A stretch of 64,000 nucleotides of DNA, taken from contig CAIYYT010000235.1 of NCBI GenBank assembly GCA_903930455.1, positions 771 to 64,770 of the forward strand, given 5' to 3'. Every line of letters starts with the position of its first letter. Within the stretch, counting starts at the first letter, position 1. Positions 2,804 to 41,767 of this stretch are shown piece by piece. The translations under genes were made by a program, and so were the position numbers. The notes under the pieces were generated by a model. It had not been told where the DNA came from. It saw only the letters and a list, made by a program, of their open reading frames with translations, and made no database searches. The stretch comes from an uncultured bacterium (lineage in GTDB: Bacteria; Zixibacteria; MSB-5A5; CAIYYT01).

Positions 2804-2924
2804 AGTAATTTGCATCTTGGAAGTCATTCTCTTGCTCCGACTAGGCTTGGGGAAGTAAAAGCTAACTAGTCAATCATTCAAAGTTTTTGCTTGACAGCCA
2901 TAGCTCACTGATTCATAATTACTT

Positions 2925-3521: not shown

Positions 3522-3525
3522 TAGG

Positions 3526-9161: not shown

Positions 9162-10792
9162 TCAAAGACTCCTTCTGGATCGATACCAGCTAGAGGATCG
9201 CGACCAGATTCGGACTGCGGTGGTGGCGTCTGCTCGGACTTTCGCAGACGCGGAATGCCAAACTGCGCTCGTGACCGCTCGATCACTGCTTTCGCGCTTT
9301 CAGAATTCGGCTCTACATCTACCAACGGTACACGCATAGGAAACGTGCTCTGGCCGATCCGGCAGTACGCGTCGCCGACTCGCAGGCGCACGAGCTCCTC
9401 CGGCGGCAGCGGTTCAACATCGTAGTCGTATTGGGTCAGGAATTCGTGCGAGAGACGCGACGCGTCTGCTTGTGATACCTGGAAACTCACCATGGTCGAG
9501 ACATTGCCAAAGATCTCGCGTAAGAGCTCTGGTGGTAACTGGCCAGTCTGTTGGTGAGCCAAGATTAGCCCGAGTCGGTACTTCCGTGCCCGTGACAGAA
9601 TCTTTTCATACGACGTTGACGCAGTGCCACAGAAGTTCTGGAACTCATCCAAATACAGATAGAAGGGACGGCGTTCTCCCTTGGCGACATTTGCCCGACT
9701 CATGGTCGCCGTCTGAAACTTCGACACGATGAGTTGGCCGATCAGCTGGCTGGCGGCTTCCCCGAGGATGCCATCCGATAGGTTGAATAGCAGAATCTTT
9801 CCACTGTCCATGGCCCGGCGAATGTTCAGGAGCCTGTGCTGAGCTTCTTCCTTGGTCAACGTCGTGTGCAAAGGTGGGCAGAGGCAGTTACGGGCGAATT
9901 TTGCCCCGACGATCCTTCCGATACGGTTGGTGATCGGCAGGTGGGATTCCTTCGGGAACTGTGGGTAGACCTGTTTGAAGAATCGCCGCGTGCGGTCGTC
10001 TGCCGTTGTCTCAATAATTTCGTCCCGAAGCTTGGTTTCGTGCCGGTCGAGCAGCGTCTCTATGTCGAGCAGTGTCGACCCCGGCCGCTCGATCAGCGCG
10101 TACAGCGTATGCCGAAGAATCTCATCCATCCGGGGGCCGCCTTCGCCCACAACGCGCTGGAGGATGGTGAAGGTCTCGTCAACGTGCAGGTCCACGTCCT
10201 CACCAGCATCGATATGCAGGGGGTTCAGGACGACTGGACACTCGATATCCGCTGGGTTGAAATAGATGACATCATCAGTGCGGTGTTCCGGAATGAATGG
10301 TAGCAGTTCATCAGTCAGCAATTCATACTCCGGCGCGAGAACCCCGATGCCGTGCCCTGCGTGCATGTCCTGCAAGATCATGTACCGCAGGAAATTCGTC
10401 TTGCCATACCCCGACTTGCCGATGACGTAGGCGTGCTTGTCGCGCAGTTCGTCAGGTAGGATGACCGGCACCCCGTAGTCTGAACCTTGGTATCCAAGCT
10501 CGAGGCCCTGCGTGCTGAACATCTTGCTGGCGATGCGACCTCGTAAGTCCTCAGCGGACATGCCGGAAGCAATCATGGTGCGGAGATCCTCTCGCGAAAC
10601 AACCGAGCGCGCCAAATATCCATAGTTATTGGCGAAGTAACGGACGACGTCCTCGCACTCATCCAAGCGTCGATTCTCTGCTTCGTCTCGCTCTCTTTTC
10701 TCTCTGCGTTGTTGTTCAGCGCTCCGGCTTTGCAGTCGCACCGCTGCAAAAATCAGGATGCCGATCAGGGCGATTCCGAGCAGGATTTCCAA
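9158..10792 (-). CDS. VirD4/TraD/TraG-like type IV coupling protein-family ATPase (N-terminal TM anchor)
   Basis: An N-terminal hydrophobic helix, Walker A GKSGYGKTNFL, and YLYLDEFQNF/ARKYRLGLILAHQ C-terminal motifs typical of T4CP/TraG-D_C. A paralogue lies at 43403-44680. Confidence 0.65.
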   Translation of the reverse strand: MEILLGIALIGILIFAAVRLQSRSAEQQRREKRERDEAENRRLDECEDVVRYFANNYGYLARSVVSREDLRTMIASGMSAEDLRGRIASKMFSTQGLELGYQGSDYGVPVILPDELRDKHAYVIGKSGYGKTNFLRYMILQDMHAGHGIGVLAPEYELLTDELLPFIPEHRTDDVIYFNPADIECPVVLNPLHIDAGEDVDLHVDETFTILQRVVGEGGPRMDEILRHTLYALIERPGSTLLDIETLLDRHETKLRDEIIETTADDRTRRFFKQVYPQFPKESHLPITNRIGRIVGAKFARNCLCPPLHTTLTKEEAQHRLLNIRRAMDSGKILLFNLSDGILGEAASQLIGQLIVSKFQTATMSRANVAKGERRPFYLYLDEFQNFCGTASTSYEKILSRARKYRLGLILAHQQTGQLPPELLREIFGNVSTMVSFQVSQADASRLSHEFLTQYDYDVEPLPPEELVRLRVGDAYCRIGQSTFPMRVPLVDVEPNSESAKAVIERSRAQFGIPRLRKSEQTPPPQSESGRDPLAGIDPEGVFE

Positions 10793-11118: not shown

Positions 11119-11892
11119 ATGGGAGAGAAACTTAGGATTTTTGTAGAGAGAAATCTCAAGCTAGTGAATCTCATCGTGCTTTTGGTTGGCATTCTTCTCA
11201 TGGTAATTGGATTGCTATTGGGCAAGGCTAGTCCTTCTGTTGCCTTGGTAATGGTAGGTGTTGGGAGCTCGGTCGTGGCAAGCGCTCTTGTTTTCTACCT
11301 CTCCAGCTTTATGTTGGTTCGTCAATTGGAGGTTCAAGATATTGTGTCGGAATGGGGACTTGTAGCGGTCTACAGAACTCGCGCGGAAATGAATCAGAAG
11401 AGTAATCAATATTTGGGAAAGGCTAAGGGTAAGCTGGATATTATCGCATTCGGACTGCGTTCACTGCGCGACAATATGTCCTCTGTAATTGAGGAGAGAG
11501 TCAAGTCGGGTCTCTCGATTAGAATACTGACGATTGACCCCAATTCGACCGTCGTGAGTTTAAGGGAGATAGACGAACAGCAGTCTGACGGATCGATCAA
11601 GAAGACTATCTGTGATCTCGCATCTTGGGTGTCACAAATTCGCGCACATCAGGCGAGTGGCTCTCAGGTGGAGATTAGGTTCTATAATGCGTTGCCTCAG
11701 GATTTCTATTACCGGGTAGACGACCATTTATTTGTCGGCCCGTACCTGTTTGGAAAGACTAGTCAGCAGACTATTTCTTACGAGTTTAGGTCCGGCTCTC
11801 TCGGGTTTGACTATTGGACTGAGTATTTTGATTCATTGTGGTCGAACAGGAATTTCTCGGTGATTCATGAAGAATTCGGCAAAAGTGCGTGA
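11119..11892 (+). CDS. 2TM membrane protein with ~200-aa C-terminal soluble domain of unknown function
   Basis: Two N-terminal hydrophobic helices. An AAAGGTGAGGA RBS precedes ATG 11119 (the ORF track starts at TTG 11098). A distant paralogue lies at 22694-23536. Its 3' end overlaps the radical SAM gene. Confidence 0.55.
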   Translation: MGEKLRIFVERNLKLVNLIVLLVGILLMVIGLLLGKASPSVALVMVGVGSSVVASALVFYLSSFMLVRQLEVQDIVSEWGLVAVYRTRAEMNQKSNQYLGKAKGKLDIIAFGLRSLRDNMSSVIEERVKSGLSIRILTIDPNSTVVSLREIDEQQSDGSIKKTICDLASWVSQIRAHQASGSQVEIRFYNALPQDFYYRVDDHLFVGPYLFGKTSQQTISYEFRSGSLGFDYWTEYFDSLWSNRNFSVIHEEFGKSA

Positions 11893-12832
11893 TAGTGAGA
11901 TCCTCTCTGTGGATCGTCGGACACAAAGTGAGATGTTACCCGAATACTCGGATGGCCGATTTTTCATAAGCCCAGTGTTGGGTTGTTCTGCTCATTGCAG
12001 CTACTGTTATATCTACAGTGAAGGATTTGGGTCCAACGTCTGCAAGAATCCGCTTTCTATTGGGCGACTGATTTCTTGGCTTGAATCTCATGAGCGATTT
12101 CGTCTAGGGCGTAAGGGATCAATACTCTCTGTCGGTGCCTGGGGAGATCCATTTGCTCCTGAGGTTTCTGTTGAGGTGACTCTTGAATTGATTCGCCAAC
12201 TTTCGGCTCTAGGAAATCCCATTCAACTTATTACGAAATACCCTATTACTGAAGATGTACTGGATGCCCTGGCCAAAGTCTCGCTGTATCGGGGCCACTT
12301 GTTGTTTTCAACGTCGATCGTATCCATTACAAACTGGCAATCGATTGATCCGAAAGTATCATCCCCAGAAAATAGATTGAAAATGCTTGCGCGAATGGAA
12401 AACCGCCAAATTCCAACGAACTTGATGATCAAACCATTTCTGCGTGGCATTACTGACATTGACACCGTCATCTTTAAGCGTGAATTGATGCTAAACCGCG
12501 TAACGAGTTGTGTGGTTGGCGTGCTCTATTGGAACGCCAAGATAGCTGAACGAATCTATGGTTCTACTCACGACCATAATACCTTCACGAAGATGCTGAG
12601 GAATCGGATATTGGATCACGGACTCGTCTGTCGACCTGCTTCCATTTACAGAACGTTCTCTGGAGAGGCTATGGATGGGTTTTGTGCTGAGTTGATGGAT
12701 GCTGGTATCCGCGTTTTTAAGAACGCGTCTTGCGTCAGTGCATGGTTGACGGACACAAGACATGTGAGTGGACTAAGGCAATCCGATCCGTTAGGACTCT
12801 GCGTGAATTGCGAAAACGCTGCTTGCCAATAA
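11867..12832 (+). CDS. Radical SAM protein, SplB/COG1533 (DNA photolyase-like) family
   Basis: SPVLGCSAHCSYCYIYS matches the COG1533 CxxxCxxC cluster (PY.GCSHGCIYCYA). An alternative start is ATG 11933. Confidence 0.7.
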   Translation: MKNSAKVRDSEILSVDRRTQSEMLPEYSDGRFFISPVLGCSAHCSYCYIYSEGFGSNVCKNPLSIGRLISWLESHERFRLGRKGSILSVGAWGDPFAPEVSVEVTLELIRQLSALGNPIQLITKYPITEDVLDALAKVSLYRGHLLFSTSIVSITNWQSIDPKVSSPENRLKMLARMENRQIPTNLMIKPFLRGITDIDTVIFKRELMLNRVTSCVVGVLYWNAKIAERIYGSTHDHNTFTKMLRNRILDHGLVCRPASIYRTFSGEAMDGFCAELMDAGIRVFKNASCVSAWLTDTRHVSGLRQSDPLGLCVNCENAACQ

Positions 12833-12901
12833 CTACCGCCTTTGGTATTTTTACGGTTAGAAGGTGAACCGATCACTAAGGACATTTCAAGCAAGAGCTT
12901 T

Positions 12902-13555
12902 ATGCGCAAGACAGATGTGATAAAGAAGACAGTCATTCATGTTCGCAGTCTGCAGCAGCAGGAGAGTACTGGGCACGATTGGTGGCACACCCACAGAGTC
13001 TGGCAGATGGCCAAGAAAATAGGTCGGATAGAGAAAGCCGACCTATTAGTTGTTCAGTTATCTGCGCTGCTGCATGACGTTGCAGACTGGAAATCACACG
13101 AAGGCGACTTCGAAGTTGGTGCCAGGGAGGCACGAACGTGGCTCTCGCGATTCAGTCTTGATCCCAAATGCATTGACCATATCTGCTGGATAGTACAGTC
13201 CATTTCATTCAAAGGTGTTGCCGCCAAACGGAGCGATCTAACGCTCGAAGCGATGGTGGTTCAGGATTCAGATCGATTGGATGCGCTTGGAGCAATCGGA
13301 ATCGCCAGAACATTTGCCTACGGTGGAAGCAAGGGGCGGGCCATATATGATCCAAGTGTTCGTCCAGTGAAGCATAAGACGGTCAAGTCGTATGTCGACA
13401 ATAAGAGTCCATCTATTAACCACTTCTATGAGAAACTTCTGCTTCTGAAGACGCGAATGCATACAGAGACTGCTCGCCGTATTGCTTCGAACCGCGATCA
13501 GATCATTCGTGACTTCTTGAGAGAATTCTACGATGAATGGCGGGGTAGGAAATAA
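12902..13555 (+). CDS. HD-domain phosphohydrolase
   Basis: H..H at WWHTHRV and HD at ALLHDVAD, then DSDRLDALGAIGIAR. The ORF could start earlier at 12842. Confidence 0.75.
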   Translation: MRKTDVIKKTVIHVRSLQQQESTGHDWWHTHRVWQMAKKIGRIEKADLLVVQLSALLHDVADWKSHEGDFEVGAREARTWLSRFSLDPKCIDHICWIVQSISFKGVAAKRSDLTLEAMVVQDSDRLDALGAIGIARTFAYGGSKGRAIYDPSVRPVKHKTVKSYVDNKSPSINHFYEKLLLLKTRMHTETARRIASNRDQIIRDFLREFYDEWRGRK

Positions 13556-13626: not shown

Positions 13627-14634
13627 TCAATACCGCTGAACAATTTCGCTCCCGCCACCCGGCAGACGAGGGCAGCCCTCATCCGCCGGGCCCGGAGGTT
13701 CCTTAGAGCTAGCATCAGGGTTCTGGTCAGCGCACAGGTGGTGTTCCTGGCGCTGTCGGGAGCGGTAAAAGGAAGGCACAGGCAGCGGGCATGACGATAC
13801 AGGGCCGCCCTGTTCGGAAATGGTTTGCCAATTTGCAGCAAAGAGTTTTTCCGGAGTGCTAAACGAGACCGCAGAGGAATCAGTGCAGGCAATCAGGTCT
13901 GGACACGAGGAGTAGGCACGCAGATTCTGGAGCTTGTGTTTGACATGTTCAAGCCGCTTCTGCGTTGTCGTTACCAGCAGAACTCGAAACGACCGGATAC
14001 CGAATCGTCGTTGGGGAGCTTTCTGCTGCCAGAGCCAGTGGTACCCCGCGCATTTCGCGGCAATGCGTCCCAGATCGGTCGTCCCTCGGTCGATTTCGAG
14101 GAAATAGGTGTATGCGCGCCGTTGATGGTGCAGGGTGAACATAGCGTCAGGGATGATCGGCGTTGTCTGGGTTATTACCGGATATCGCGGCGCCGCAACC
14201 ATCTTCAGTTTCCGCCCCTGCGTCCAGGATGAGAGGTTGAGATCGTTTGCCATGCGCACTGCCAACAGCAGACAGATGCGGAAATCGTTGATCCGTTCGC
14301 TGTGCTCACTGAATGAACCTAGTTTGCTCACTGGGACACGGTCTTGAGATTTAAGGTTAGGCAAAATCCGTTGCCCTCTTCGCGAAAGTGCGTAGAGATA
14401 TTGTGACGATCCCTCGCCGAGCCGCGTCGGTCGTACCACACGAGCCAGCAGGCCGTGCCTCCAGAGTTGCGCAAGTCGCTTGCGCGTTCGGTGGAGCGAC
14501 TGGAAAAACAAATGGCAAACCTGAACAGTTGTGAGCACGCGGTAGTCCCTGAGCGCGCAGAAGAGTTCGCGGTCACGGTCAGTGACTTGAATAGGTCGCA
14601 GCTTGTTCGTCGATGTTTTATTGGGAGACGTCAT
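13627..14634 (-). CDS. Replication-relaxation (Replic_Relax) family protein, second copy
   Basis: FLEIDRGTT motif and an N-terminal wHTH-like region. It is a paralogue of 8277-9161. The C-terminal tail may be over-extended. Confidence 0.6.
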   Translation of the reverse strand: MTSPNKTSTNKLRPIQVTDRDRELFCALRDYRVLTTVQVCHLFFQSLHRTRKRLAQLWRHGLLARVVRPTRLGEGSSQYLYALSRRGQRILPNLKSQDRVPVSKLGSFSEHSERINDFRICLLLAVRMANDLNLSSWTQGRKLKMVAAPRYPVITQTTPIIPDAMFTLHHQRRAYTYFLEIDRGTTDLGRIAAKCAGYHWLWQQKAPQRRFGIRSFRVLLVTTTQKRLEHVKHKLQNLRAYSSCPDLIACTDSSAVSFSTPEKLFAANWQTISEQGGPVSSCPLPVPSFYRSRQRQEHHLCADQNPDASSKEPPGPADEGCPRLPGGGSEIVQRY

Positions 14635-21268: not shown

Positions 21269-22222
21269 TCATCTCACACGTCCAGTAGAAAGAAACAGTT
21301 GGAGATGCGTAGCGAAGTCCCAAACAGCTAAACGGTCTTCAGTGTTCATCCCAAGTGTCTTGAAGACGATGACCTCTGTGAGGTCCTCGAAGAATCTCAT
21401 ATATTCATCAACTCCCCAATCAAGCGAGGCATAAGGACTACTCACTGGGAGCAACTTCATCCAGGGTTCCGCGTACGGTCGGTCAATGGGTAGCTGCCCG
21501 TTGTGCGCAAGCTGATTCCGAAGCACATAGAGAATATTCTTGGATAGTCCGTTTTCCTTGTGAGTAAGAAAGATGGTCTTATTAATCGCGCCAGGCCAAA
21601 AGTGTTCCAGAAGTTTGGCTACGATTTCGTGAAGATTGTTGCTTTCTTTCTGAAATATCCTCGTATAAAGAAATTCCCAAATGACAAAATAAGCAAGTAC
21701 GCGCGATTCGGAGTTACCAACGTTGCTCGAATTGAGGAGCATCCTGATATGAAACCCATTCTTGAACTTAGCGCACCACGCTTGATCTTGCAGCATACCA
21801 ATTGCGTCAGAACAATCTTCGGCCAACTGTCGCTTGTCGTGGCTCACCATACGAAGGTGGTTTGCTGCTGCGACGGGAAAATCTCGATCCTCCCACCGCC
21901 TGGAATGCAATACCCAGTTAGCACCTGTTAGTACAGACCCAATCATGAGTATGTCGTGCAGTAACTTGGCCTTTCTATATTTGTCTGGAGCCCAGTAATA
22001 GCGACGGTTACAGTTAATAATCGCATCCTGCTGCTTACCGTGCCAGACTACATAGGCGTTTCGTCTGATCTTACGATTGTCGCGAGAGGCCATTATCGAT
22101 GTGTAGACGCGTCCAGATTGTTCTGGCTTGGCAAGGGAATGAAAGGTGTATCCGACAACAGAAAACGGTTGAAAGAAAGAGTTACTGCTGCCGACTAGTA
22201 CATTACACAAGTATTGTTTCAT
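21269..22222 (-). CDS. Hypothetical protein, possible Abi/HEPN-like
   Basis: LRNQLAHNG gives an Rx4H HEPN-type motif. It lies adjacent to an XRE regulator. Weak, motif-level only. Confidence 0.3.
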   Translation of the reverse strand: MKQYLCNVLVGSSNSFFQPFSVVGYTFHSLAKPEQSGRVYTSIMASRDNRKIRRNAYVVWHGKQQDAIINCNRRYYWAPDKYRKAKLLHDILMIGSVLTGANWVLHSRRWEDRDFPVAAANHLRMVSHDKRQLAEDCSDAIGMLQDQAWCAKFKNGFHIRMLLNSSNVGNSESRVLAYFVIWEFLYTRIFQKESNNLHEIVAKLLEHFWPGAINKTIFLTHKENGLSKNILYVLRNQLAHNGQLPIDRPYAEPWMKLLPVSSPYASLDWGVDEYMRFFEDLTEVIVFKTLGMNTEDRLAVWDFATHLQLFLSTGRVR

Positions 22223-22693
22223 AGCCGAGTCCGATTAGTTGGATGACTGAAACCTCTATAATATAATAGGTTAAGAATTAGCTGACCGCATTTGCAGGTA
22301 TTATTCTCTCCTTGTTTTTGAAACAAATCAAGCTCCACATTGAAGCTTGTATTCAGAAAGTAATACCCAATTGACACGATCTGCAACAGGAGTACGTCTA
22401 GATCGCAGAGAGAAATTGTTGTGAAGGAAGGAAATAACACCAATATATTATGTTGGTATTAGTCGATAGGGACTGACAACCGAGGCTCTCCACGAGGAGA
22501 TCAAGTCCGGCACCAGCAAGGGATGTGGCAAATGCTCATCAACCTAGTAGCGGTAAGAGGCCTCCGCTGTCTCGACACTTCCCGTGGACCACTGGAGTTA
22601 AGTATCCCTGACGGCCATCGGCCTGGCAGCGAGTACTAGTCATAATTGACTATGAGAATGGCATTTGTATATTAACTTGGAAGCGGAGGAGCA

Positions 22694-23536
22694 ATGTTGA
22701 GGAAGCCAAAGTTAGCAGTCACGATGAAAAGGAAATTGCTGCAGATCTTAGTGGCGATTGCGAAGCGTTGGAAGGAAATCTCACTGTTGATATGCGTTCT
22801 GGGTGCTCTGCTCAGCTACGCGATACCACCCTTGAGAAAGCATACTAATGCATTCCTCGTGCTTTGCGCAATTGTGGTCGTGCAATTGGTCCTCGATATT
22901 AGGCAAATTGTCTCGAAATCACCGTTGCCCGCGAAGTATACTTCCTTACATGAGGCGATTACAGACATTGACACGGCTATGAGAAAGGCGATGGCTAAGA
23001 AACGCAAGAAGCCATTAGAAATTCGTATAGTTGCAGGACGCACGATGACCGTTGCAAACATGCTGAAGACACTGGGCGAGGATGTAAGAGTCGGCAGGCT
23101 TCTTTGCCGAGAAACGAAGGTCATGCTGTTTTGTGTGGATCCAAGCTTTGCAATGAATCTGGATTTGTCGATTGTAAGAGATAAGGATGCATTCCAAAGG
23201 AATATGGGCATCTACGCGGCCACAATCGAATCCAATTGTAAGACGCTGGCGCAATTCAACTTGGACGAAGAGTGCAAGAGACAGGGACTCTCTTTTGAGG
23301 TCGTCCATTACAAATTTATGCCGACGTTTTTCTCATTTCTAATTGGGAATGAGTTGTTGTATTGGGGAAGCTATACGTGGGATGATGTTCGCCAAGACTT
23401 TGATGGGCCAATTAACCCCTGCTTTCGAGTTGACCACAGCAACGAATTCTTTGTGGACACTTACGAATGGCAGTATAATAGAACTGAGTTTTTGTGGTCG
23501 CTTGCCAAAAGAGAAGAAGAAACGCTCAGTGCATAG
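22694..23536 (+). CDS. 2TM membrane protein with C-terminal soluble domain (distant paralogue of 11119-11892)
   Basis: Two N-terminal TM helices. The soluble domain shares the spacing of hydrophobic/Gly/Asp-Pro patterns with the first copy. Confidence 0.5.
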   Translation: MLRKPKLAVTMKRKLLQILVAIAKRWKEISLLICVLGALLSYAIPPLRKHTNAFLVLCAIVVVQLVLDIRQIVSKSPLPAKYTSLHEAITDIDTAMRKAMAKKRKKPLEIRIVAGRTMTVANMLKTLGEDVRVGRLLCRETKVMLFCVDPSFAMNLDLSIVRDKDAFQRNMGIYAATIESNCKTLAQFNLDEECKRQGLSFEVVHYKFMPTFFSFLIGNELLYWGSYTWDDVRQDFDGPINPCFRVDHSNEFFVDTYEWQYNRTEFLWSLAKREEETLSA

Positions 23537-23553
23537 AATTCGAATCCACCTAT

Positions 23554-24471
23554 ATGACAGGTAAAATCGACTTGAGATCAGTCTTACCCTACGACTCTTC
23601 AAGCCAACGTCGATTCCGCTCATCAACCGGAATCGAAAAGGCTGCAGTCGGGAGCACCTACTGGCAGAGTCGTGCTAAACACTACGAGGAATACTCCTCT
23701 TGGTGTCGAGATCTTGGTCTTTTTGCCAAATGCACAGAACCTTTGAAAAGCTTGGGTGAAGCATCTCGATGCCTCGATCTCGGAGGAGGAACTGGTTGGG
23801 TCGCGCGTCATGACAATGAACTGACGGGTCGACAATGGACCGTCTTGGATCAGTGCGCAGACTATGGGAAGTACATTCGCCCCCCAATCACTTTTGTGGT
23901 CGGTGATGCGCACAGAACACGATTTCCGAATTCTTCTTTCGATTTCATACTAGCGAGGTCACTCCTTCACTATGTGGACTGCCCACGCGTACTTGCAGAA
24001 GCTCGTCGACTTCTTTGCTCAAAAGGAACACTAGTCGTTGCACAGAAGATATTAGCGTACAGGGGAAGCGAGTCTGAATGGTTCAGCGAACTTGATCGGC
24101 TGAAGCGCCCCGAACCCACGAAGGCTTGGAGTGCTAAGCAACTCTTGATTGCTATTACCTCGGCAGGATACATTCTTCACAAAGTATCATTCTTGACAAT
24201 GCCTCGCAAAATAATGGTACGAGAGTGGTTCGAATCCGGCGGTAAGCTCTCAAACCCCAATCAACATAGGATAAACAAACTATTCCGTACGGCTCCGAAA
24301 TCGGTAAGAAATTACCTGAAATTGAACTTCACTGACGACGAAATATCTTATCTGGAACAATGGATGGTAGTTGCCTGTCAGCCATTGACTAGCGAAGCCG
24401 TATACAAGGCTACTAAGAGTAGACTTCCTCGCGGGCGCACGCACGGCGTATTGCATGGGCTGCAACTGTAA
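23554..24471 (+). CDS. Class I SAM-dependent methyltransferase
   Basis: Motif I is CLDLGGGTGWV and the post-I acidic residue VLDQ. Motif IV-like is FDFILARSLLHYV. Confidence 0.7.
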   Translation: MTGKIDLRSVLPYDSSSQRRFRSSTGIEKAAVGSTYWQSRAKHYEEYSSWCRDLGLFAKCTEPLKSLGEASRCLDLGGGTGWVARHDNELTGRQWTVLDQCADYGKYIRPPITFVVGDAHRTRFPNSSFDFILARSLLHYVDCPRVLAEARRLLCSKGTLVVAQKILAYRGSESEWFSELDRLKRPEPTKAWSAKQLLIAITSAGYILHKVSFLTMPRKIMVREWFESGGKLSNPNQHRINKLFRTAPKSVRNYLKLNFTDDEISYLEQWMVVACQPLTSEAVYKATKSRLPRGRTHGVLHGLQL

Positions 24472-24582: not shown

Positions 24583-26124
24583 TCACCGCGCGGTGTAAGA
24601 TAAATGAATGTCTGCAGTAACCTGCTTACCCGACAGAATCGCGTCTCGGTTATCAAAGATGAGGTAGTACTTCGCCGGTTTCGGGAATTTGTAGTCGAGG
24701 TCAAAGAGCGTCACCTTGTCGGAACCAAAGAGCTCGGTAGCCTTGTTGCCATTCGCCCAATTCACGTAGTTCACCTCGTCCATGATGTGGAATTTGATGT
24801 CGTTGCGTGAGCCTCCGGAAGCGAGGAATCTTCCTTTTAGCGTCGGGTTCTTGGTTGTCGCCTGAGCGAGGTCCAATATCCGTGCCACGTATTGTCCGGC
24901 TCCGATATTCATGGATTCCACCCAGACCGGCATCGTGAGCTGCGGCGGCGGCAAAGCAGACACGTAATTCTTGATCCAGTCGAACTGATCGGCGTCTACA
25001 GTCAAGCCATCTGCATCGATTTCGGACAACTCAACCGAAACGTTCTCCTGTCGCTCACTGGGTTTCGGGTGCGTAGCTCCCCATTGGTCGAGAGTACTAC
25101 CGCTTGATCCTGGAAGCTTCTTGAAGGTGTCGAATAGGGTGAGCATACCGTGGGGATCAAATCCAGCCTGATACATATTGTAGAAGCCAAGGAGGTCTGC
25201 TTCCCGTTCATCATCGCGGCTGTACTTCATCAGGGCAAAGAACGCAACTGCACCCCCAGCTTCCTTAAGGCTCTGCACCCATCTGTTGTGAGCCTGGTTG
25301 AGAAGGATGCCGCTTGCTTCGATGATGCCCGTGTAGAGGAGTCGCTTGGAGAGCTGCTGGCTCGTATGGTTCCCGACGTTGTGCCCGATCTCATGAGCCA
25401 GAACTCCTGCAAGCTCAGCCTCTGATCCAAGCTTTTCCAGGAGACCTCGGTAGATGAATATCATGCCACCGCCAACGGTGAAAGCGTTGACCTCGTCGCT
25501 ATTGATGGCTTTGCAGGCATAGACGGTTCCGGGTTGCTTGCTGAACTTGCCGATGTACTTGGTTAGGCTGTCCAGGTAGCCATCAACGATGGGATTGCTG
25601 AGCATTGGTGCCTGTTGCTCGATTTCGGCGGCGCTGACTTCTGCCAGTTGAAAGATCGTGGAGGAATCCAACAAGTTGAATCCCGATGCGTAGTCGAGAC
25701 GGTCAACGTTCAATACACTTGGGTTGAAGCAGAAAGACTTGATTGAAGCAACGGGAATAGATCGCTTGTCTCCGCGTACGGTCGAGCTCACCTGAAACTT
25801 TTTGCGATCCATCTTTGAAATCAGGGCCGGAATTTCTGAGCCGCTTCTGTATCGAATTCGGTCGCCAGCTATTGAGTCGGTTGGACAATTGCAGTCCAAC
25901 AAAGTAGTATCGAACGCAATCGACGAGATCTTGGCAATACGCCACGTCTCTTTTTGATCATTGCTTTTGAATTCAAACCGGAATTTCTTGTCGTCGTATT
26001 TGATGAATTCGTAGACACCGCTAATGTTGTCTCTGAAGGACACTCGTACAAACAATTTGTCCTTCGCAGCACAGTGATTCGCAGCAGAGACAAGAACTAG
26101 CCCTATGATTATTGGGATTCGCAT
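24583..26124 (-). CDS. M48-family zinc metallopeptidase (secreted/periplasmic)
   Basis: Signal peptide MRIPIIIGLVLVSAANHCAA. HEIGHNVGNH HExxH motif and downstream SRDDEREADLLG (Glu ligand). Confidence 0.75.
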   Translation of the reverse strand: MRIPIIIGLVLVSAANHCAAKDKLFVRVSFRDNISGVYEFIKYDDKKFRFEFKSNDQKETWRIAKISSIAFDTTLLDCNCPTDSIAGDRIRYRSGSEIPALISKMDRKKFQVSSTVRGDKRSIPVASIKSFCFNPSVLNVDRLDYASGFNLLDSSTIFQLAEVSAAEIEQQAPMLSNPIVDGYLDSLTKYIGKFSKQPGTVYACKAINSDEVNAFTVGGGMIFIYRGLLEKLGSEAELAGVLAHEIGHNVGNHTSQQLSKRLLYTGIIEASGILLNQAHNRWVQSLKEAGGAVAFFALMKYSRDDEREADLLGFYNMYQAGFDPHGMLTLFDTFKKLPGSSGSTLDQWGATHPKPSERQENVSVELSEIDADGLTVDADQFDWIKNYVSALPPPQLTMPVWVESMNIGAGQYVARILDLAQATTKNPTLKGRFLASGGSRNDIKFHIMDEVNYVNWANGNKATELFGSDKVTLFDLDYKFPKPAKYYLIFDNRDAILSGKQVTADIHLSYTAR

Positions 26125-26232
26125 GCTGTTATACTCCCCTAGATTGGTATATGATCTTCCCACGACAAAGTGTCGTAAGTCAGGAGCCCTGGCCTCTTGA
26201 CCTACAAGACCGTACTATCAATCCACCTCCAG

Positions 26233-27000: not shown

Positions 27001-27276
27001 TTATCGGGGATCTCGCTGCCCACGTGGAAATCTCCACGGATCGATTACCCATGGCATGAGATCCGCCTTCATGGTGTTGCAGCGTACGCACGCAGGTACG
27101 AGGTTTCTCAACTGGTCAGCGCCGTTCCTAGAAAACGGAATGAAGTGGTCAATATGCCATGCTCCTCGTGCGCCAACTCTGCCGTGATTCTGAAACGACA
27201 GCCGCTTGCCACAGTAATAACAGTACCCGTTTGTCCGGTCGTACACCAGGTTGATCTCAATCTCACGTTCGGTCAC
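27001..27276 (-). CDS. HNH endonuclease
   Basis: CYYCGKRL...HIDHFIPFSRNG...NLVPACVRCNTMK (C-x2-C...H-N...H...C-x2-C). Confidence 0.8.
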   Translation of the reverse strand: MTEREIEINLVYDRTNGYCYYCGKRLSFQNHGRVGARGAWHIDHFIPFSRNGADQLRNLVPACVRCNTMKADLMPWVIDPWRFPRGQRDPR

Positions 27277-27470: not shown

Positions 27471-28301
27471 TTACTCGGGAAATATCTTAGTGAGAAGCTC
27501 CCGCAACTCCAACAGAACGCTTTCGAATGTTGGCAGATTGTCAACTTGATGCGCCAATCCGCGCTCCCAGAACGGGGCTGCTTCATTGACCCGATCAGGC
27601 GCAAAGAAATCCTCGACGACAGGGAGTGTTATTTCTTTGAATTCACATTTCTTTTCCAATATACCGAGCGTGTCATCGATGACAATGTCTTTCTTGTGCT
27701 GCTTCAGTAGAATCCAGACGTCATAGTAATCCCGACTCTTCCCGCGCTGGAGGATACTCCTGAGTTTCTCTGCGACAATTTCCTCAAGTGAGTACACTGA
27801 TAGTCGTGCATCGATGTCGTCCGTGTAGTCTCGGTGGACGAGTCTGCTGTTGGATGACGTAATAATCTTCTCGTCGAAAGCGATGTCTACACGAATGTTG
27901 TTCTTCTGGCCACTGGCTTTGCGTAAGGGACCATCGTAGCCAAGCTTGAGCTGCACGCTTGTGAGTGTGTCGCCCGTTTTCGGATACTGCGAATACTCGA
28001 TAACCCGCATTGGAACTCCAAATAGCCGTGTGGCATTTTCAGTTGTCGTCTGAAAGATCGCCTTGATTTTCTTTGGTTTCAAGATAACCCGGGAGGTGAA
28101 ATCCAAATCTTCTGAGAATCGCCACTCTGGGAAGTAGCACTTTTTGAGTGCTGTTCCACCCTTGAAGAGCAAGGACTTTTGCACCTGCTCGCTCTGCGAC
28201 AGAGCCATGAGGGCTTTCGAAAGCACGTAGTCCTTCTCCACGATGCCGGGGTCGATCTTGGCTTGCGCTGCCTTGGTGCGGATTTCCGTAGGGTCGATCA
28301 T
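27471..28301 (-). CDS. AbiEii/AbiGii-family nucleotidyltransferase toxin (type IV TA / abortive infection)
   Basis: EKDYVLSKAL...LFKGGTALKKCY...RFSEDLDF is the DUF1814/AbiEii signature. Confidence 0.75.
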   Translation of the reverse strand: MIDPTEIRTKAAQAKIDPGIVEKDYVLSKALMALSQSEQVQKSLLFKGGTALKKCYFPEWRFSEDLDFTSRVILKPKKIKAIFQTTTENATRLFGVPMRVIEYSQYPKTGDTLTSVQLKLGYDGPLRKASGQKNNIRVDIAFDEKIITSSNSRLVHRDYTDDIDARLSVYSLEEIVAEKLRSILQRGKSRDYYDVWILLKQHKKDIVIDDTLGILEKKCEFKEITLPVVEDFFAPDRVNEAAPFWERGLAHQVDNLPTFESVLLELRELLTKIFPE

Positions 28302-28305
28302 AAAC

Positions 28306-29127
28306 TCAAGTCAGTCGCCAGTCAGTAAGACTTTTGGGGGTTACGTTTACGCGGACATGCCAATCAGCACAGATGAAACCAGTTTTGTTCTTGTTTGGGT
28401 CCAACAGCACAATGCTCGGTGTAACTAGCTTGAGTGCTTCTTTACGCGATCTGGCAGTCCAGAGGTCGAGGGTGTCAAGAAGAAATCCCAAACGCTTGAT
28501 AATCGAGACGTTTTCCATACGGACAGCATAGTCAACCACGGTTTCAAGGTTGGTGTCTTTCCTTCCGTTCCAAATGCCTTTGGCCACCTCGACGATCTCA
28601 CCACAATAGCGGGGCTGGTCGAGACAGTCGGCAATAGTCTTCTCTTTGTCAGCGACGGCAATTTTGCGGGTATCTACCCAATGCTCTGAAAACCCAAAAA
28701 AACGAGATTCTTTTAAGCGAACGAAGCGAATGGCGATTCCCTTAAGTTCTAACGGCAACTTCATTCTCTGCGTAGCAACATAGATCGTGCGTGACGGTTG
28801 TTCCGTCCAGCCGTAGAACTGCAGCGCTGTCCAGTAGCTCACGTAGTAGGGCTTGATCAGCTGGGAGGCGATGATAATACCTTCCTCTGTGTATTCTCCG
28901 GTCTTCCAAGCTGCAGGGGGAATGACCAAGTATTTCGCTTTCTCGATGCGAAGGAGTTTCTGCTTTTCGACAAGCCTATGAACGATCTGTGAGACCGTCT
29001 TGTTGCCAAACCCAAGCAGGCGGGCTGCTTCCTCAACAGAGAAAACCTTCAGCCCACTACTGCCGATGGTTGCGATGAGTTCTGCCTCCTGAGAACCTAT
29101 TCCGGTCATCTTTTTACGATTTATCAT
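28306..29127 (-). CDS. AbiEi-family antitoxin/transcriptional regulator
   Basis: An N-terminal wHTH (FSVEEAARLLGFGNKTVSQIVHRLVEKQKLLRIEKAKYLV) and a C-terminal AbiEi domain, with a 4-bp gap to AbiEii. Start taken at MINRKK. Confidence 0.7.
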   Translation of the reverse strand: MINRKKMTGIGSQEAELIATIGSSGLKVFSVEEAARLLGFGNKTVSQIVHRLVEKQKLLRIEKAKYLVIPPAAWKTGEYTEEGIIIASQLIKPYYVSYWTALQFYGWTEQPSRTIYVATQRMKLPLELKGIAIRFVRLKESRFFGFSEHWVDTRKIAVADKEKTIADCLDQPRYCGEIVEVAKGIWNGRKDTNLETVVDYAVRMENVSIIKRLGFLLDTLDLWTARSRKEALKLVTPSIVLLDPNKNKTGFICADWHVRVNVTPKSLTDWRLT

Positions 29128-29818
29128 TATTGCCTCAACGACAACAATCATAAACCGATGAAATCTGGTTGTCAAGTATAATTTGCCACAGAAAGAGGGC
29201 TTGAAATCAGAAGACTCCAAGCCCTTGCAAAAAACTTCGCCTTTCCCTGATTTGGTTTTGAAAAGGGCTGATTTGGCTGCGCCTTCAGCTGAGCAGTACA
29301 CCGGCCCCGCGCTCCAGGTCCACACGCCAGTTAGCTACAAGCAGAGTGCAGGAGTACGGAGTTAAGGGCTGCCCAGTGCGTGAATACCTCCTCGCCTTCC
29401 CGGAGTCCGGTGTTCCAGACAGCTTCGATTTTGTTTCCGGCCCAGAGACAATCATCAAGTTAGCCGTTCTCATCGACTCGGGCCACGGGATAATCCGAAT
29501 AGCGACCTCCAATGGTGATTTAAGCAAGTCAGTTACCACTCTTAGTGCGAAAACCGTCTGTCCCTCAAGTCTCCTCCGGAAGGGATTAACAAATTCTGGA
29601 AAGATGCAAACAGACTGAAGAACATTCCTCCAATTTCTGAAGAAATCAAGACCAGAAAATGATTGCCACTACTCAATCCATCTCTTAGTTTTCGGCACAC
29701 TTCGTCCGACTTGAATTGACGACGTACAGACCATGAAGGGGGAGATGAGTTCAGTAGAACGTGCTGCGAAATTGAAACAGGAGAGACAAGTTTACTGTAT
29801 ACTCTAGGAGAGGTAGGG

Positions 29819-31552
29819 ATGCTAGAACAGATAAGACAAGAAATTGTGAACGATCCATACTATCAACAGAACTTTGCCAACGATGGAGAGCGGTTCGTTG
29901 CATGGTATTTGAGACGTGTGCTACTCAGAGATGCAATCGCTACGCGCGACGACATCACTGATGGACAGAACGATAAGCAGATGGACGCCGTCATTGTCGA
30001 CGACGAGGATCGGAAAATCCTGATAATTCAGGGCAAATTCATCACCTCCAATCAGGTAGATTCCGAGCCACTCCGGGAGATCTTAGGAGCTTGGGTTCGT
30101 CTGCAGGACCTGCACTCGCTGCAGCAAGACTGCAACGAGAAACTGAAACTCAAACTTGAGGCAGTTCGTAAGGCACTTGATGATGAATACCGAGTCGAGT
30201 TTGTACTCTTGACGACTGGAACACTCACAGACGCTGCGAAGGCTGATTTGAAAGTGTTCGGAGACAAACTTGAAGATTTCGAGGAACTCTCAGCAAGCCT
30301 CCAGCTAGTTGATACGGAGGTTCTCGAAACGCAGCTAGCTGAAGCGGAAGCACAAGAACTGCCTTCGCTTGAACACGTTCTGACTACAGACCCCCAAAAG
30401 ACACTGGTCACGGAGCTTCAGGGGACCAAGACGATAGTAACAATCCTCCCACTTAAGGAGTGCCTGCGCATTCCTGGAATCACGGACGGCCGCTTATTTC
30501 GCAAGAATGTCCGGCAGTCACTTGGCGCGAACAATAGAGTCAACAAGTCGCTCCGAGCGACCATAAACGGCGAACGAGTTCGTGACTTCTTCTATTACCA
30601 CAACGGGATCACGGCAATCTGCGATTCTGCCATTTATTCACCTGAAAGTGGTACCCTCACCGTCAAGGGACTAAGCGTTGTAAATGGCTGCCAATCGCTT
30701 TCCACAATTTACTCCGTATCTGAACGAGTTCGGGCAACCGAGGCGAAAGATGCTCACATACTCTTCCGTTTCTATGAGATTCCGGATCGGGCGCTCGCTG
30801 ACCGAATCAGTATCAATACGAATTCACAAAGTGCAGTTAAGCCACGGGATCTTCGTAGTAATGACAAGGTCATGATGGGTCTGAAGCGAGCATTCGAAAC
30901 GCGCTATGCTGATGGCTTCTTCATGACGAAGCGGGGCGAGGAACGACCAGCGGACAAAGACGCTCAGAAATCGGTTGACGTAGCAGTGTTGGCCAAAATG
31001 CTGATGGCTTGGCATTGTCAACGGCCAAACATTTCTTACAACGAGAAGAAGTTGTTCGATGAGTATTACAAGACACTCTTTCACACCGGCTATAACCCTG
31101 CTTCGATTTTGGCTCTTCTGACCTGGCTAAACGCTATCGACAACGCGTGGCCGAATCTAGCTCTCAATGATGTGTTAAAAGCCGGGCGGTCGAACGTAAA
31201 ATTCCACGTGCTTTTCTCCGTCTCGTCTATTTTCGCGGCAGTGAACAAGCAGCCCATGCTCGTTGTGGACCCAAGCTCTACGATGATGGCAGCGGAGAAT
31301 CCGAGTGATGTCTTGCCCTTAGCAGCAAACTGCGTTGAGAACGCTCTTCAGAGCGCTCTCAACCAAGCGCAAATGAGTGGCAAGGTGTTTAGTCCTCAGA
31401 ACTGGTTGAAGAGTAACGCAAGTGTCCAAGGAGAAACTCTGGTTGCCGGTACAGTGGCTGGCTTGCTTCACAGCTTCCCCAACGGGAAGGCTTTGATGGA
31501 ACTCCTTCAAGTTCCTGCCGCGGCAATGTCAAACCGGTGGTCGGCAGACTAG
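29819..31552 (+). CDS. AIPR-family abortive infection protein
   Basis: FYYHNGITAICDSAIYSPESGTLTVKGLSVVNGCQS matches the AIPR INGxQT core. ~577 aa is typical. Confidence 0.7.
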   Translation: MLEQIRQEIVNDPYYQQNFANDGERFVAWYLRRVLLRDAIATRDDITDGQNDKQMDAVIVDDEDRKILIIQGKFITSNQVDSEPLREILGAWVRLQDLHSLQQDCNEKLKLKLEAVRKALDDEYRVEFVLLTTGTLTDAAKADLKVFGDKLEDFEELSASLQLVDTEVLETQLAEAEAQELPSLEHVLTTDPQKTLVTELQGTKTIVTILPLKECLRIPGITDGRLFRKNVRQSLGANNRVNKSLRATINGERVRDFFYYHNGITAICDSAIYSPESGTLTVKGLSVVNGCQSLSTIYSVSERVRATEAKDAHILFRFYEIPDRALADRISINTNSQSAVKPRDLRSNDKVMMGLKRAFETRYADGFFMTKRGEERPADKDAQKSVDVAVLAKMLMAWHCQRPNISYNEKKLFDEYYKTLFHTGYNPASILALLTWLNAIDNAWPNLALNDVLKAGRSNVKFHVLFSVSSIFAAVNKQPMLVVDPSSTMMAAENPSDVLPLAANCVENALQSALNQAQMSGKVFSPQNWLKSNASVQGETLVAGTVAGLLHSFPNGKALMELLQVPAAAMSNRWSAD

Positions 31553-36553: not shown

Positions 36554-37126
36554 TTACCCGGCATCTACTCCGAGCATATGTAGTTTGATTTGTGTTTCTC
36601 TACTTCTCCTTTCTTCGAACGTAGTGTAGGTTTCCTGTTTGTGTTTCCAAGGTGGTGACCATTTCTCTTCGTCATGCCCGAGAAGGAAGCTCTCAGGGTT
36701 CACAACGTCTGCTATAGCGATTAATCCTTCAATCCGCCCTGACATGACTGCAGTTACTGCTGTTTGTGGAAATCTGAAGGATTCTCCTAATTGCTCCTTT
36801 TTCAGCCACTCAACCAGGTTGTGGATTAAACTTGGAGCCCAGAAGATCTCTAACCCGCAAACATTGTATACCTGATGGGCAGTTGAGATAATCGCCTGCC
36901 CGCCTGAGACAGTGAGCACGCTGAAAGGCATGTCTTGTTCATGGTACTCAGAGATGAAATCTTTGACGTCGACTGGCTCGTCCGTAGCAAAGTAGGCCTT
37001 CAGAATCTCCTTACATCGCGGGCAAATGAAGCCCGAAAGCAGAGGACGGCGTAATTCACTCTGTTGGTTACCATTGTCCCTGAATACTATTTCTCTTCCT
37101 TCAATTCGCATGCTCACTTTCCACAC
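36554..37126 (-). CDS. Hypothetical protein (190 aa), co-transcribed with the methyltransferase-helicase
   Basis: ORF overlapping the stop of the upstream gene by 13 nt. C-x2-C (CPRC) is present. No family recognised. Confidence 0.45.
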   Translation of the reverse strand: MWKVSMRIEGREIVFRDNGNQQSELRRPLLSGFICPRCKEILKAYFATDEPVDVKDFISEYHEQDMPFSVLTVSGGQAIISTAHQVYNVCGLEIFWAPSLIHNLVEWLKKEQLGESFRFPQTAVTAVMSGRIEGLIAIADVVNPESFLLGHDEEKWSPPWKHKQETYTTFEERRSRETQIKLHMLGVDAG

Positions 37127-40100
37127 TCCTTTCTTTTGAGCATCTCATTGACGAAGTCCCGGATTGAGAGTGGGTGCACCTTTTCGGTTTGCATCTTGTG
37201 GTCAATGGCCTCATTGATAGCTGCTTGCTTCAGATAGAGCAATTCGTACATGTCCTCATCAATGGTACCTTTAGACAACAGATAGGTAACCTGTACCGAC
37301 TGTTCCTGAGAGATTCGGAGCAACCTTCCTTCAGCTTGGACCATCGAACTCGGGCACCAGTCAAGGTCGGTCATAAGAGCGTGGTTTGCCCGGGTAAGAG
37401 TCTGTCCAAGATTCATGGCGAGAAGTCCCGCGACAAGTGCCTTTGGTTCAGGCTGTTTCTGGAACTCCTCAATAACTTCGTTGCGGACATCGATGGGTGT
37501 CGACCCAATCAGCAGAGGTGCCTTCAATGTGCCTGAGATCAATATCGCGTTAGGGTTGTAGCCGGTGAATATGACTGCCTTGTTATTCTGAGGAATATTC
37601 TCCAGAATGTCATTCAGTGCTTTGTGCTTGTTGGTAAGCCTTCCTCTGAACGCCGGTCCACCATCTTCTCCTGTGAATATGTGCGGACAAGTAGCGGCCT
37701 GACGAAGTTTCCAGAGCTGCCCGAGAATAGCAGCATTCTTCATGGTGTAATTGGCGTCGCGCTCTTCAAGCTCTAGCTGCTCCCTATACCACTCCACAAA
37801 GTTCTCATACCACCAGTCATAGACAGCTTTCTGGTCGACATCCATTTCCACCATGATGACTTTGACCTCCTTCGCCGGCAACTGGATCGATTGTTTGACC
37901 ATCGGGTCATCGACCAACCTTCTTATGACTTTCGGGCCCATCAGCTGCCAGAATGCGGGAAGGTTGTTCACTTTTGGCACCATCTTCTTCTTGCCCTGGA
38001 TACGATCTTGATATTCATCCGAAACGTATTCGTAGGTAGCGAATTGGCTAATAAACCTTTTCGCTCCTCCACGCCAGGGGTATGGAAATCCCGGCGATCC
38101 GCCGCCAAAGCACCAGTGAAGTTGCCAAAACATATCCGGGACGTACCCTTTGATCAGTGTACCTGTAAGAAGAAGCTTCCGCTTGGCCTTCAGGGACGAA
38201 ACTGCCTGAGAACGCAAGCTATTCTTTGTCTTCATCATCTGGCTCTCATCGACAATGATCATGCCCCAGGTCCTCCGTTTCAGCCTCTTGACAAGCGACG
38301 GAATCCAAGCACGATCAACATAGCCACACGATCTACAACCGTGCCCTGACCACGCTTCACTCTTGCATTGCGGGCAGACTAAAGCTCCCGTTCTTCGCCA
38401 GCCACAAATACAGCATTCGCCTCTGACTGTCTTGCCACAGGAAGGACAGACGATCGGATCGAGCGAGGCAACTCCTTGCCGGCTCAGCTTCTCGTACGAC
38501 ACAATAGTAAACCGCGACGTGTTTTCTATGTCCCTGGCAGATTTGATGACAGCTACACTGTCAATGCCCAGCTTCGCCAACTCGTCCGTCCAGACTTTGA
38601 CTAGGCGAGAAAGACAAATGACGAGCACTCGTCGGCTGCCGGCAATCAGGGCCGTGGCTATGGACGTACGTGTCTTACCGAGCCCCATGTCATAGAGAAG
38701 CGCGTTAAACGGCTTGCACGCCAGACGCGCAGCATCCATTTGCTGGTACTCGAAAAGGAAAGGTGACAGGCCCAACAAATCCAGTTTGCGTCGGTTTACT
38801 CCGTATGCATCGGGGATGTGGTCTTGGAGTAACGGGGAAGAAGACTCCTTGTACTGAGCTTTGCGCTTTTTCTTGATTTTTGGTGGCTCTGAGTAGGTCT
38901 GATAGACAAACTGTTGCCTTTGCCACCAGCGACGCTTACGAGCTATCCAATGAGCAAGCCCGGTATCGTATTGCCAGTTGATCTGATATGCCTCAAGCAA
39001 ATCAAGGACCTTAGGCTTGTTCGCAGAAGTATAGAACGCGCTCAACGATATAAGTTCCTGATACGGATCATCATCACGCCAATGGTCCTTTGAACAACGT
39101 ACTTCACGGATTTCTGCCAGCTTCAATGCTGTGAGGATATCGCCGGAGAAAGGAATGACAGAATATCGGCCTTTCTTGAGAAGAAGACCTTCGGCTGAGG
39201 ACGAATCTGCCGGTTTCTCTTTTGCTATCGAGACGACATTCAGTGAGTTCTTTCGCTCCGGCTCAACCGGACCGAGGTCTCGAATTTCAGCCGCAAAGGC
39301 AAGAGCGTCGACGTAGGATTGTTCTGCAAACCAGGCATTCCTGACTCGGGCAAAGCAGCCCTCATCTCCACTGCCATTTGCAGGAAGAAGGTCGCTAGCG
39401 CCAACGACAATTCTGAACGCGGGCCGGTCAGGTGCAGGCAACTTCCGCATGACCAGCAGAGTCGTCCTTGCTTCGACCCCCTGCTCCTTGAAGGTCTCTT
39501 TTGGCAGGTCAATTTCTGCTGCTATTCTGGTCTGGCCGCGATACCAGCGACGAAAAGACACCATGTCGGGTCGCTTCAGCGAGCCTTTTGGTAATATGAC
39601 CGCAAGGTATCCCGACGGCATCACCGCCCGAATCGCTAATTCCAGACAAGCAACGTGTGACAGAATCTTCCCGCCGAAACCCACGAGATCAAGCTTGAGA
39701 TTCGTCTTCCAGTTCAGCCCAAAAGGCGGGTTGAGCAGGGCATAATGAAACTGATTCTCAAACAGATACTCCAAGCAGTCACCTTGGATTACAGTCTGAC
39801 CGGGGAAAAGCGCTCGTGCCACAAGACACGCTTCTTCCTGGAACTCGATACCAGTAGCATAACAACCTTGCGGAAGGTGCCAGAACATCGCTCCGTGTCC
39901 GCAGGTGTTATCAAGAACTCTGGCTCCCTTTGGAATGGACAACATGTCTACCATGAGTTTTGTAACTGAGGCAGGTGTGAAGTACTGGCCCAGCGCCTTA
40001 TGTGAGGCTGCCAGGAAGTTCTCCCCTTCTTCTTTTTCCAGGAGCCCTCCAACTCCAGTGTAGAGTCGAAAGACTTCCTCTCGATCAAATGCACCTGAGG

Positions 40101-41744: not shown

Positions 41745-41767
41745 AGTGTTTTGCTCCTTTCTTGGAA

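Follow-up and report, generated by a model that had tools for sequence, protein, structure and literature searches.

Why would a bacterial mobile island hold two look-alike membrane proteins, each directly followed by a different enzyme that uses S-adenosylmethionine (SAM)? The question is raised by a 64,000-nucleotide stretch of contig CAIYYT010000235.1 from an uncultured bacterium of the Zixibacteria, which we refer to at its full length as the window. A sequence-only reading of this stretch had noticed a protein with two N-terminal transmembrane (2TM) helices beside a class I methyltransferase (MTase) and a second protein of the same build beside a radical SAM enzyme, and had proposed a modular family in which a membrane effector or sensor is combined with an exchangeable enzyme. 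We call the two membrane proteins A (22694..23536, + strand, 280 amino acids (aa)) and B (11119..11892, + strand, 257 aa, or 264 aa if translated from TTG 11098). Comparison of family profiles shows A and B to be paralogous, and in both the 2TM module is joined to a soluble domain that has the phospholipase D (PLD) fold without its catalytic residues, hereafter the dead-PLD domain. We tentatively suggest, by analogy with known defence systems and with slightly less than even confidence, that the two are sensor-effectors of an undescribed conflict system, probably of the anti-phage abortive-infection type.

Relationship of proteins A and B

Open reading frame (ORF) checks confirmed the coordinates of A and the extent of B, with an alternative start for A at ATG 22724, the position at which its relatives begin. 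Kyte-Doolittle windows and AlphaFold2 (AF2) models agree on two N-terminal TM helices followed by a domain of about 200 aa in each protein, just as had been claimed from the letters. The two predicted TM helices of A span residues about 26-43 and 49-70 (22769..22903, + strand), or 26-48 and 49-75 when hydropathy windows and AF2 helices are combined, with hydropathy peaks of 2.1 and 2.3 and AF2 helices at residues 26-43 and 45-75, and B has a hydrophobic block at residues 7-70 with helices at 3-33 and 39-79. Profile, fold and alignment comparison placed the soluble PLD-fold domain of A at residues ~78-270 (22925..23503, + strand), in which R116, P150, Y206, P210, W224-G225, W229, D235, G238-P239, N241, C243 and R263 are conserved across the family. 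A protein identical to A is present on 27 contigs from several samples.

At the pairwise level, the similarity of A and B that is seen by eye is indistinguishable from chance. BLASTP aligned the two colinearly at 23% identity over 171 aa with an E-value of 0.35, and hhalign of the single sequence A against the B-family profile gave an E-value of 0.077, neither of which is significant. A word-indexed homology search with A retrieved A alone, and its repeat with a family profile retrieved two proteins; an exhaustive HMMER scan of 1.84 billion representatives then yielded 97 A relatives, counted as representatives at the 50% identity level, 66 of them at E <= 1e-10. Profiles were built from alignments of the A family (49 sequences) and the B family (42 sequences), and hhalign matched these to each other with a probability of 95.9% and an E-value of 5.5e-9 over 242 columns. 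Because TM helices can inflate such scores, they were cut off and the comparison was repeated, and 131 columns of the soluble domain matched with a probability of 95% and an E-value of 4.1e-8. When all stop-to-stop ORFs of at least 60 aa in the window were scanned with a hidden Markov model (HMM) of the soluble A-family domain, A (at 208 bits) and B (at 25.6 bits, E 2e-7) were the only matches, the next ORF being at E 0.9, and cross-family HMM matches were reciprocal at 12-32 bits. As the family profiles match with and without the TM helices and the scan of the window finds A and B only, the suspected similarity of the two soluble domains is confirmed, and A and B are shown to be paralogous. 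Pairwise BLAST and single-sequence hhalign alone would have wrongly rejected this relationship, and the exhaustive HMMER search was needed to recover it.

A phospholipase D fold without catalytic residues

Both soluble domains have the alpha/beta sandwich fold of phospholipase D. Their relatives at the fold level include the sugar-binding domain of TrmB, Nuc, NucT, the PLD domain of SauUSI and Zucchini, along with bacterial and plant PLDs and the human FAM83 pseudo-PLD domain. The catalytic motif HxK(x)4D(x)6GSxN is absent from the A and B families: His reaches 30% in no alignment column of either, conserved Lys is missing from the equivalent strand (A 210-218, B 193-201), and the strand that usually bears HxK carries hydrophobic or aromatic residues in both. 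With the catalytic HKD lost, ligand binding without cleavage is the most likely role of the dead-PLD domain.

Window B scores 22.8 bits against DUF5919 (PF19319), for which the gathering threshold is 23.5 bits, and 33 of the 42 B-family members match this model at E <= 0.01; judged by these scores, B is a divergent DUF5919-like paralogue of A. Pfam gave no DUF5919 match for A or for any of the 49 aligned A-family members, and A is tied to DUF5919 only through the profile-profile similarity to the B family. A-family members matched no relevant model in Pfam, NCBIfam or PADLOC, and searches of the PDB with the A-family and B-family profiles found no sequence relatives. Searches for viral relatives were likewise negative: a 14-sequence alignment of the A family, which did find loci in a metagenome search, found no homologues in viral contigs, and a fold search of BFVD gave no significant viral relative, the best being a giant-virus PLD at E 3.6e-3.

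Two other identities were considered and rejected. The SLATT 2TM domain had no Pfam match in A or B. The B relatives P0032 and P0047 are named 'SMODS-associated and fused to various effectors (SAVED) domain-containing' in public sources, and no SAVED match was found for them in NCBIfam or in the Pfam scan of the 42 B-family members; their fold is that of PLD, not CARF-like, and the names look like mis-annotations.

Enzyme partners in the window and in related loci

As had been claimed, A is directly followed by a class I SAM-dependent MTase (23554..24471, + strand, 305 aa from ATG 23554), for which the Methyltransf_11 match is strong (E 1.7e-12, 48.3 bits vs a cut-off of 21.2) and in which the glycine-rich SAM motif I, LDLGGGTG, is present. 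This in-frame ATG lies 18 nt past the stop of A, and gene callers start the MTase at GTG 23494, which gives 325 aa and an overlap with A. The neighbours of A and the MTase lie on the opposite strand, so the two genes form a two-gene cassette. A GGAGG lies 4 nt upstream of ATG 22694, and a sigma-70-like promoter match, TTGACT-16-TATATT (22646..22673, + strand), is a consensus match only, promoter-like sites in the region around A being no more numerous than in shuffled sequence. Looking for an amino-methyltransferase of the restriction-modification type, we found neither the (D/N/S)PP(Y/F) amino-DNA methyltransferase motif, as read from the sequence, nor an N6_Mtase or MethyltransfD12 match in Pfam. 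Identity with mad2 of the MADS system was rejected, as the local 22.4-bit match (positions 289-427 of 492) corresponds to the generic Rossmann MTase core, and PADLOC matched no other mad genes among the cassette genes.

The strongest genomic criterion for a true partner is gene fusion, and 11 of the 97 representatives carry a class I MTase at the C-terminus of the A domain (P0064, P0066, P0073, P0078, P0084, P0090, P0091, P0092, P0101, P0103 and P0129). The fused MTase of P0084 belongs to the same subfamily as the window MTase (E 1e-25). The contigs of P0064, P0078 and P0084 ended too soon for neighbouring genes to be seen. We therefore take the MTase to be a true partner of the A domain, and on the evidence of gene architecture the two are shown to be functionally linked. 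The neighbourhood sample is small, comprising about 20 A loci and 26 B loci with several short contigs, and within it a homologue of the window MTase (E 1e-29 to 1e-61) adjoins A relatives in seven loci (L031, L033, L034, L037, L043, L046 and L047), each time as an MTase-NUDIX fusion of ~410-420 aa. At L041 the adjacent MTase is a Pfam call only, in a gene truncated where the contig stops. Seven loci (L031, L032, L034, L035, L043, L046 and L047) also have an adjacent dTMP-kinase-like P-loop gene, and five (L038, L044, L045, L046 and L047) an adjacent stand-alone NUDIX gene. The fullest operon, found in L046 and L047, consists of NUDIX, 2TM-PLD, kinase and MTase-NUDIX genes, and the MTase, dTMP-kinase-like and NUDIX genes are all missing only where a contig end cuts the A locus.

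B is directly followed by the radical SAM enzyme that had been claimed for it (11867..12832, + strand), which overlaps the end of B, carries CxxxCxxC and is SplB/PA0069/Rv2578c/mobile-pair-B-like: its Pfam match is sub-threshold, and the NCBIfam PA0069/Rv2578c/mobile-pair-B models match at E 2e-10 to 2e-6. PADLOC gave no pVip (viperin) match for this protein. The third gene of the B cassette encodes an HD-domain phosphohydrolase (12842..13555, + strand), YedJ/PRK10119-like by its domain matches. Among the B genome loci, a homologue of the window radical SAM gene is directly adjacent in ten, downstream and overlapping in eight and upstream in two, and in two of these ten (L003 and L006) an HD gene follows it; at L027, also among the ten, the radical SAM protein is fused to NUDIX. 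Other B relatives have other neighbours. A fusion of CYTH (CyaB-like, class IV adenylate-cyclase-like) with guanylate kinase adjoins a B relative at L005 (6768-7898), with relatives of this fusion at L013 (6656-7318) and L015 (6784-7386), and at L049 a DUF4062-B fusion comes after a Thg1-family nucleotidyltransferase (4083-4889). Enzymes of the CYTH-guanylate kinase and Thg1 families are able to produce unusual nucleotides and might serve as other sources of the signal. Further tightly linked partners in this branch are an ARMT1-like phosphatase, a GuaA-like protein and an alkaline phosphatase.

The neighbourhoods thus bear out the exchangeable partner of the sequence-only reading, with MTase, MTase-NUDIX, dTMP-kinase-like and NUDIX genes beside A relatives and radical SAM (with or without HD or NUDIX), CYTH-guanylate kinase and Thg1 genes beside B relatives. 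That the partner should be a SAM enzyme holds strongly in the A branch and, in the B branch, at the radical SAM loci only.

Exchangeable N-terminal modules

The opposite flank of the dead-PLD domain is exchanged as well. The 2TM module is replaced by DUF4062 in the A relatives P0078 and P0091 and by a CAP12/Pycsar-type TIR domain (PF10137) in P0102, P0112 and P0125, and B relatives fused to DUF4062 were also found (P0053, P0055 and P0057-59). DUF4062 has been shown experimentally, in Swarozyc and Evangelion, to be a TIR-like NADase anti-phage effector that works through abortive infection (bioRxiv 10.64898/2026.05.01.722283, 10.64898/2026.06.25.731849). Since it takes turns with NADase effectors at the same position, the 2TM module would most simply be an effector too. 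Two-helix membrane modules in such a position are the usual membrane-disrupting type of effector in the cyclic-oligonucleotide-based anti-phage signalling system (CBASS) and the pyrimidine cyclase system for anti-phage resistance (Pycsar). The earlier proposal of a membrane effector or sensor gains weight from the exchange of 2TM for NADase modules, and the role itself we infer. These relatives support a picture in which the soluble dead-PLD domain is the constant part, and the effector flank and the nucleotide-handling enzyme flank are both exchangeable.

Proposed function

In the sensor-effector reading, the neighbouring enzyme would make or handle a modified nucleotide-like small molecule. 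For A this enzyme would be the class I MTase, which in relatives is usually NUDIX-fused and accompanied by the dTMP-kinase-like kinase, and for B the radical SAM enzyme together with the HD phosphohydrolase. The dead-PLD domain, which like most PLD domains is probably dimeric or oligomeric, would sense the enzyme-made molecule, and the ligand-bound domain would switch the 2TM module so that the membrane is permeabilised. In the DUF4062 or TIR relatives NAD+ would be destroyed instead, and the cell would be killed or arrested. Signalling could run in either direction, through an activating product or through the loss of an inhibitory one. We consider it possible, with more doubt than for the general scheme, that the ligand is a methylated or radical-modified nucleotide by which the dead-PLD domain gates a pore or a TIR-like NADase, with the kinase and NUDIX/HD enzymes assisting. 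That would amount to a new class of immune signalling by small molecules, with the modified nucleotide as second messenger. In a sharper variant, the product is possibly a short-lived 'all is well' signal turned over by NUDIX/HD, and the system a guard of the SAM or nucleotide pool, an idea suggested by the pairing of both window paralogues with SAM-consuming enzymes; the effector would then be set free when a phage degrades SAM enzymatically or takes over the nucleotide pool.

Several observations weigh against this scheme. The window cassette is minimal compared with those of relatives, as its MTase is without a NUDIX domain and no kinase gene is adjacent, and window A is divergent, with <=31% identity to any family representative and deviations at family-conserved residues (R86H, G114A, R118M, R125K, E184T and Y213F); the system may here be reduced or re-specialised. 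The usual substrates of Methyltransf_11/25-type enzymes are small molecules, lipids or proteins, and it is the NUDIX and kinase partners alone that suggest a nucleotide substrate for the MTase. The single-polypeptide 2TM-PLD-MTase fusions raise the question of what would sense infection, and the TIR-A protein at L048 has no obvious partner gene. In the B branch, only 10 of the 26 loci have a radical SAM neighbour, and many are without an evident partner, next to seemingly unrelated genes such as those for LepA and GDP-mannose dehydratase. The ligand and its pocket are putative, and every functional assignment draws on architecture and neighbourhood. PADLOC had no match for A or B and so provides no independent defence annotation. 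The mobile island around both cassettes also carries integrases, a serine recombinase, Replic_Relax, a TraD-like ATPase, AbiEii, AIPR, HNH and SNF2-MTase, a defence-island setting that supports a conflict role as a suggestion and not as proof.

The same genes could also be read as a viperin-like factory for toxic nucleotides, in which the enzymes make a (d)NTP analogue that poisons phage polymerases and the 2TM-PLD protein is a regulator, scaffold or tether. Such a factory would suit the partners of A, which include a nucleotide kinase, a pyrophosphatase and a SAM enzyme, as well as the radical SAM and HD/NUDIX partners of B, since the viperins of prokaryotes belong to the radical SAM enzymes and frequently come with nucleotide kinases, and FAM83 shows that a pseudo-PLD domain can serve as a protein scaffold. 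We nevertheless think it unlikely, because a mere tether would not be swapped for NADase-type effectors such as DUF4062 and the CAP12-type TIR, and because the radical SAM protein is unmatched by the viperin models of PADLOC and is SplB/PA0069-like rather than viperin-like. Slightly less likely again would be a self/non-self marking system, in which the MTase or radical SAM enzyme marks host RNA/DNA and the dead PLD, by its Nuc/Zucchini/SauUSI descent, binds the unmarked invader and triggers the effector: the window MTase is without the (D/N/S)PP(Y/F) motif, its mad2 match is limited to the generic Rossmann core, and the repeated presence of NUDIX and dTMP-kinase-like partners suggests mononucleotides rather than polymers. 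The effector swaps likewise speak against a marking system.

An ordinary lipid or metabolite modification system with no conflict role, in which the PLD-like domain binds a phospholipid head group (cf. cardiolipin/phosphatidylserine synthases) and a PmtA-like MTase modifies it, is improbable in view of the lost catalytic HKD and of the replacement of the 2TM anchor by soluble TIR/DUF4062 in relatives. None of the NUDIX, dTMP-kinase-like, radical SAM, HD, CYTH-guanylate kinase and Thg1 partners is a lipid enzyme, and the cassettes are mobile-island cargo. The pairwise BLAST result (E 0.35) and the sequence-profile result (E 0.077) would by themselves fit the absence of any real relationship, with a likeness arising from TM helices and composition and SAM enzymes that are chance neighbours, but this we regard as extremely improbable: it is excluded by the profile-profile match without TM helices (E 4.1e-8), the window-wide HMM scan that finds A and B only and the eleven MTase fusions, and the two domains have the same PLD fold.

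Comparison with known systems

As putative sensor-effectors, A and B resemble the proteins of CBASS and Pycsar (Cap12 TIR-SAVED, PycTM/PycTIR), which likewise have an N-terminal killing module and a C-terminal non-catalytic ligand-type domain and stand beside a nucleotide-acting enzyme; A relatives even carry the same CAP12/Pycsar TIR domain, PF10137. The layout of killing module plus candidate sensor is present in the architecture, with 2TM in the window and PF10137 TIR or DUF4062 in relatives, and with putative ligand binding. The window systems differ in their sensor, which is a dead PLD fold, and in their partners, which are MTase(-NUDIX) and dTMP-kinase-like or radical SAM and HD. No CD-NTase or pyrimidine cyclase was found beside A or B, the weak mad2 match being the only one that PADLOC gave on the cassette genes, and no SAVED or cNMP-binding domain was matched in the A and B families by Pfam or PADLOC.

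TrmB provides a precedent for the PLD fold as a ligand sensor, whereas its N-terminus is DNA-binding, as befits a transcription regulator, and that of the A and B families is 2TM, TIR or DUF4062. The HKD motif separates both families from the catalytic PLD/HKD phosphodiesterases (Nuc, NucT, Zucchini, SauUSI and BfiI nuclease domains), and as a PLD pseudoenzyme the A/B domain resembles the DUF1669 domain of FAM83. Panoptes, in which a constitutive nucleotide signal restrains a 2TM-SAVED effector, and the viperins, which combine radical SAM and kinase, are both nucleotide-modifying defences; PADLOC gave no viperin or mCpol match here, and the enzyme families and sensor fold differ. Swarozyc and Evangelion are alike in that A and B relatives carry DUF4062 in place of 2TM, which fits the DUF4062 core with a variable auxiliary/sensor region reported for them, but window A and B are without DUF4062. 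In the two DUF4062 preprints (bioRxiv 10.64898/2026.05.01.722283, 10.64898/2026.06.25.731849) nothing is said of PLD-like domains, methyltransferases, radical SAM, NUDIX or TM variants. A literature search found no mention of DUF5919 and no description of an anti-phage combination of MTase, NUDIX, kinase and TM, and PADLOC 2.0 and NCBIfam contain no model for A or B. We rate the plan of a sensor-effector with a small-molecule-making enzyme as known and the sensor fold and enzyme classes as new, in a system undescribed in PADLOC, NCBIfam or the literature searched.

Genomic context of the cassettes

The B, radical SAM and HD cassette is flanked by two Replic_Relax paralogues (8277-9161 and 13627-14634, both - strand) and adjoined by a TraD/TrwB-like coupling ATPase (9158-10792, - strand), and it looks like cargo inside a mobilisation module. 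Convergent with the MTase of the A cassette is a gene for a BepA/LoiP-like M48 metallopeptidase (24583-26163, - strand), which has a C-terminal extension weakly like the GOLD/emp24 domain; it is absent from all related loci, and nothing ties it to the cassette. Divergent from A is a gene for a 317-aa protein (21269-22222, - strand) with no Pfam or NCBIfam match, in which RNQLAH corresponds to the Rx4H motif typical of HEPN RNases and which has a weak PADLOC match to Cas13d (E 0.0056).

Further defence and mobile genes lie downstream. These encode HNH (27001-27276, - strand), AbiEii (27471-28301, - strand) with an unannotated upstream partner (28306-29325, - strand), AIPR (29819-31552, + strand), a 1045-aa fusion of N6-MTase and SNF2 helicase (37114-40251, - strand) and DUF932 (40680-41789, - strand). 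At the other end of the window, following an aconitase/LeuD-like housekeeping fragment (61-594), the island holds a third nucleotide-centric cluster (864-6897). It adjoins a tyrosine integrase (864-1814) and comprises an AAA_28 NadR-like kinase (1925-2803), a nucleoside 2-deoxyribosyltransferase (2925-3521) and, on the - strand, a PNP/UDP-type phosphorylase (3933-4706), a HisG-like phosphoribosyltransferase (4681-5313), a 324-aa protein with no assigned family (5297-6271) and a thymidylate-synthase-like protein (6268-6897). This cluster may be another nucleotide-modifying defence module or a DNA-hypermodification module.

Implications

If A and B act as we suggest, they would represent a further bacterial route from a small-molecule signal to cell suicide, one that joins a dead-PLD receptor to SAM-dependent or radical nucleotide chemistry and that is not seen in CBASS, Pycsar, Thoeris or type III CRISPR. 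The reading offers a testable function for an unannotated family, with its 97 A-branch representatives and the divergent DUF5919 branch for B. It also provides DUF4062 and TIR effectors, the triggers of which are under current study, with candidate sensor domains. The system occurs in two-gene, four-gene and single-polypeptide versions, which make a compact experimental set. Should the defence role not hold, the fusions still tie a new pseudo-PLD domain firmly to the metabolism of nucleotides.

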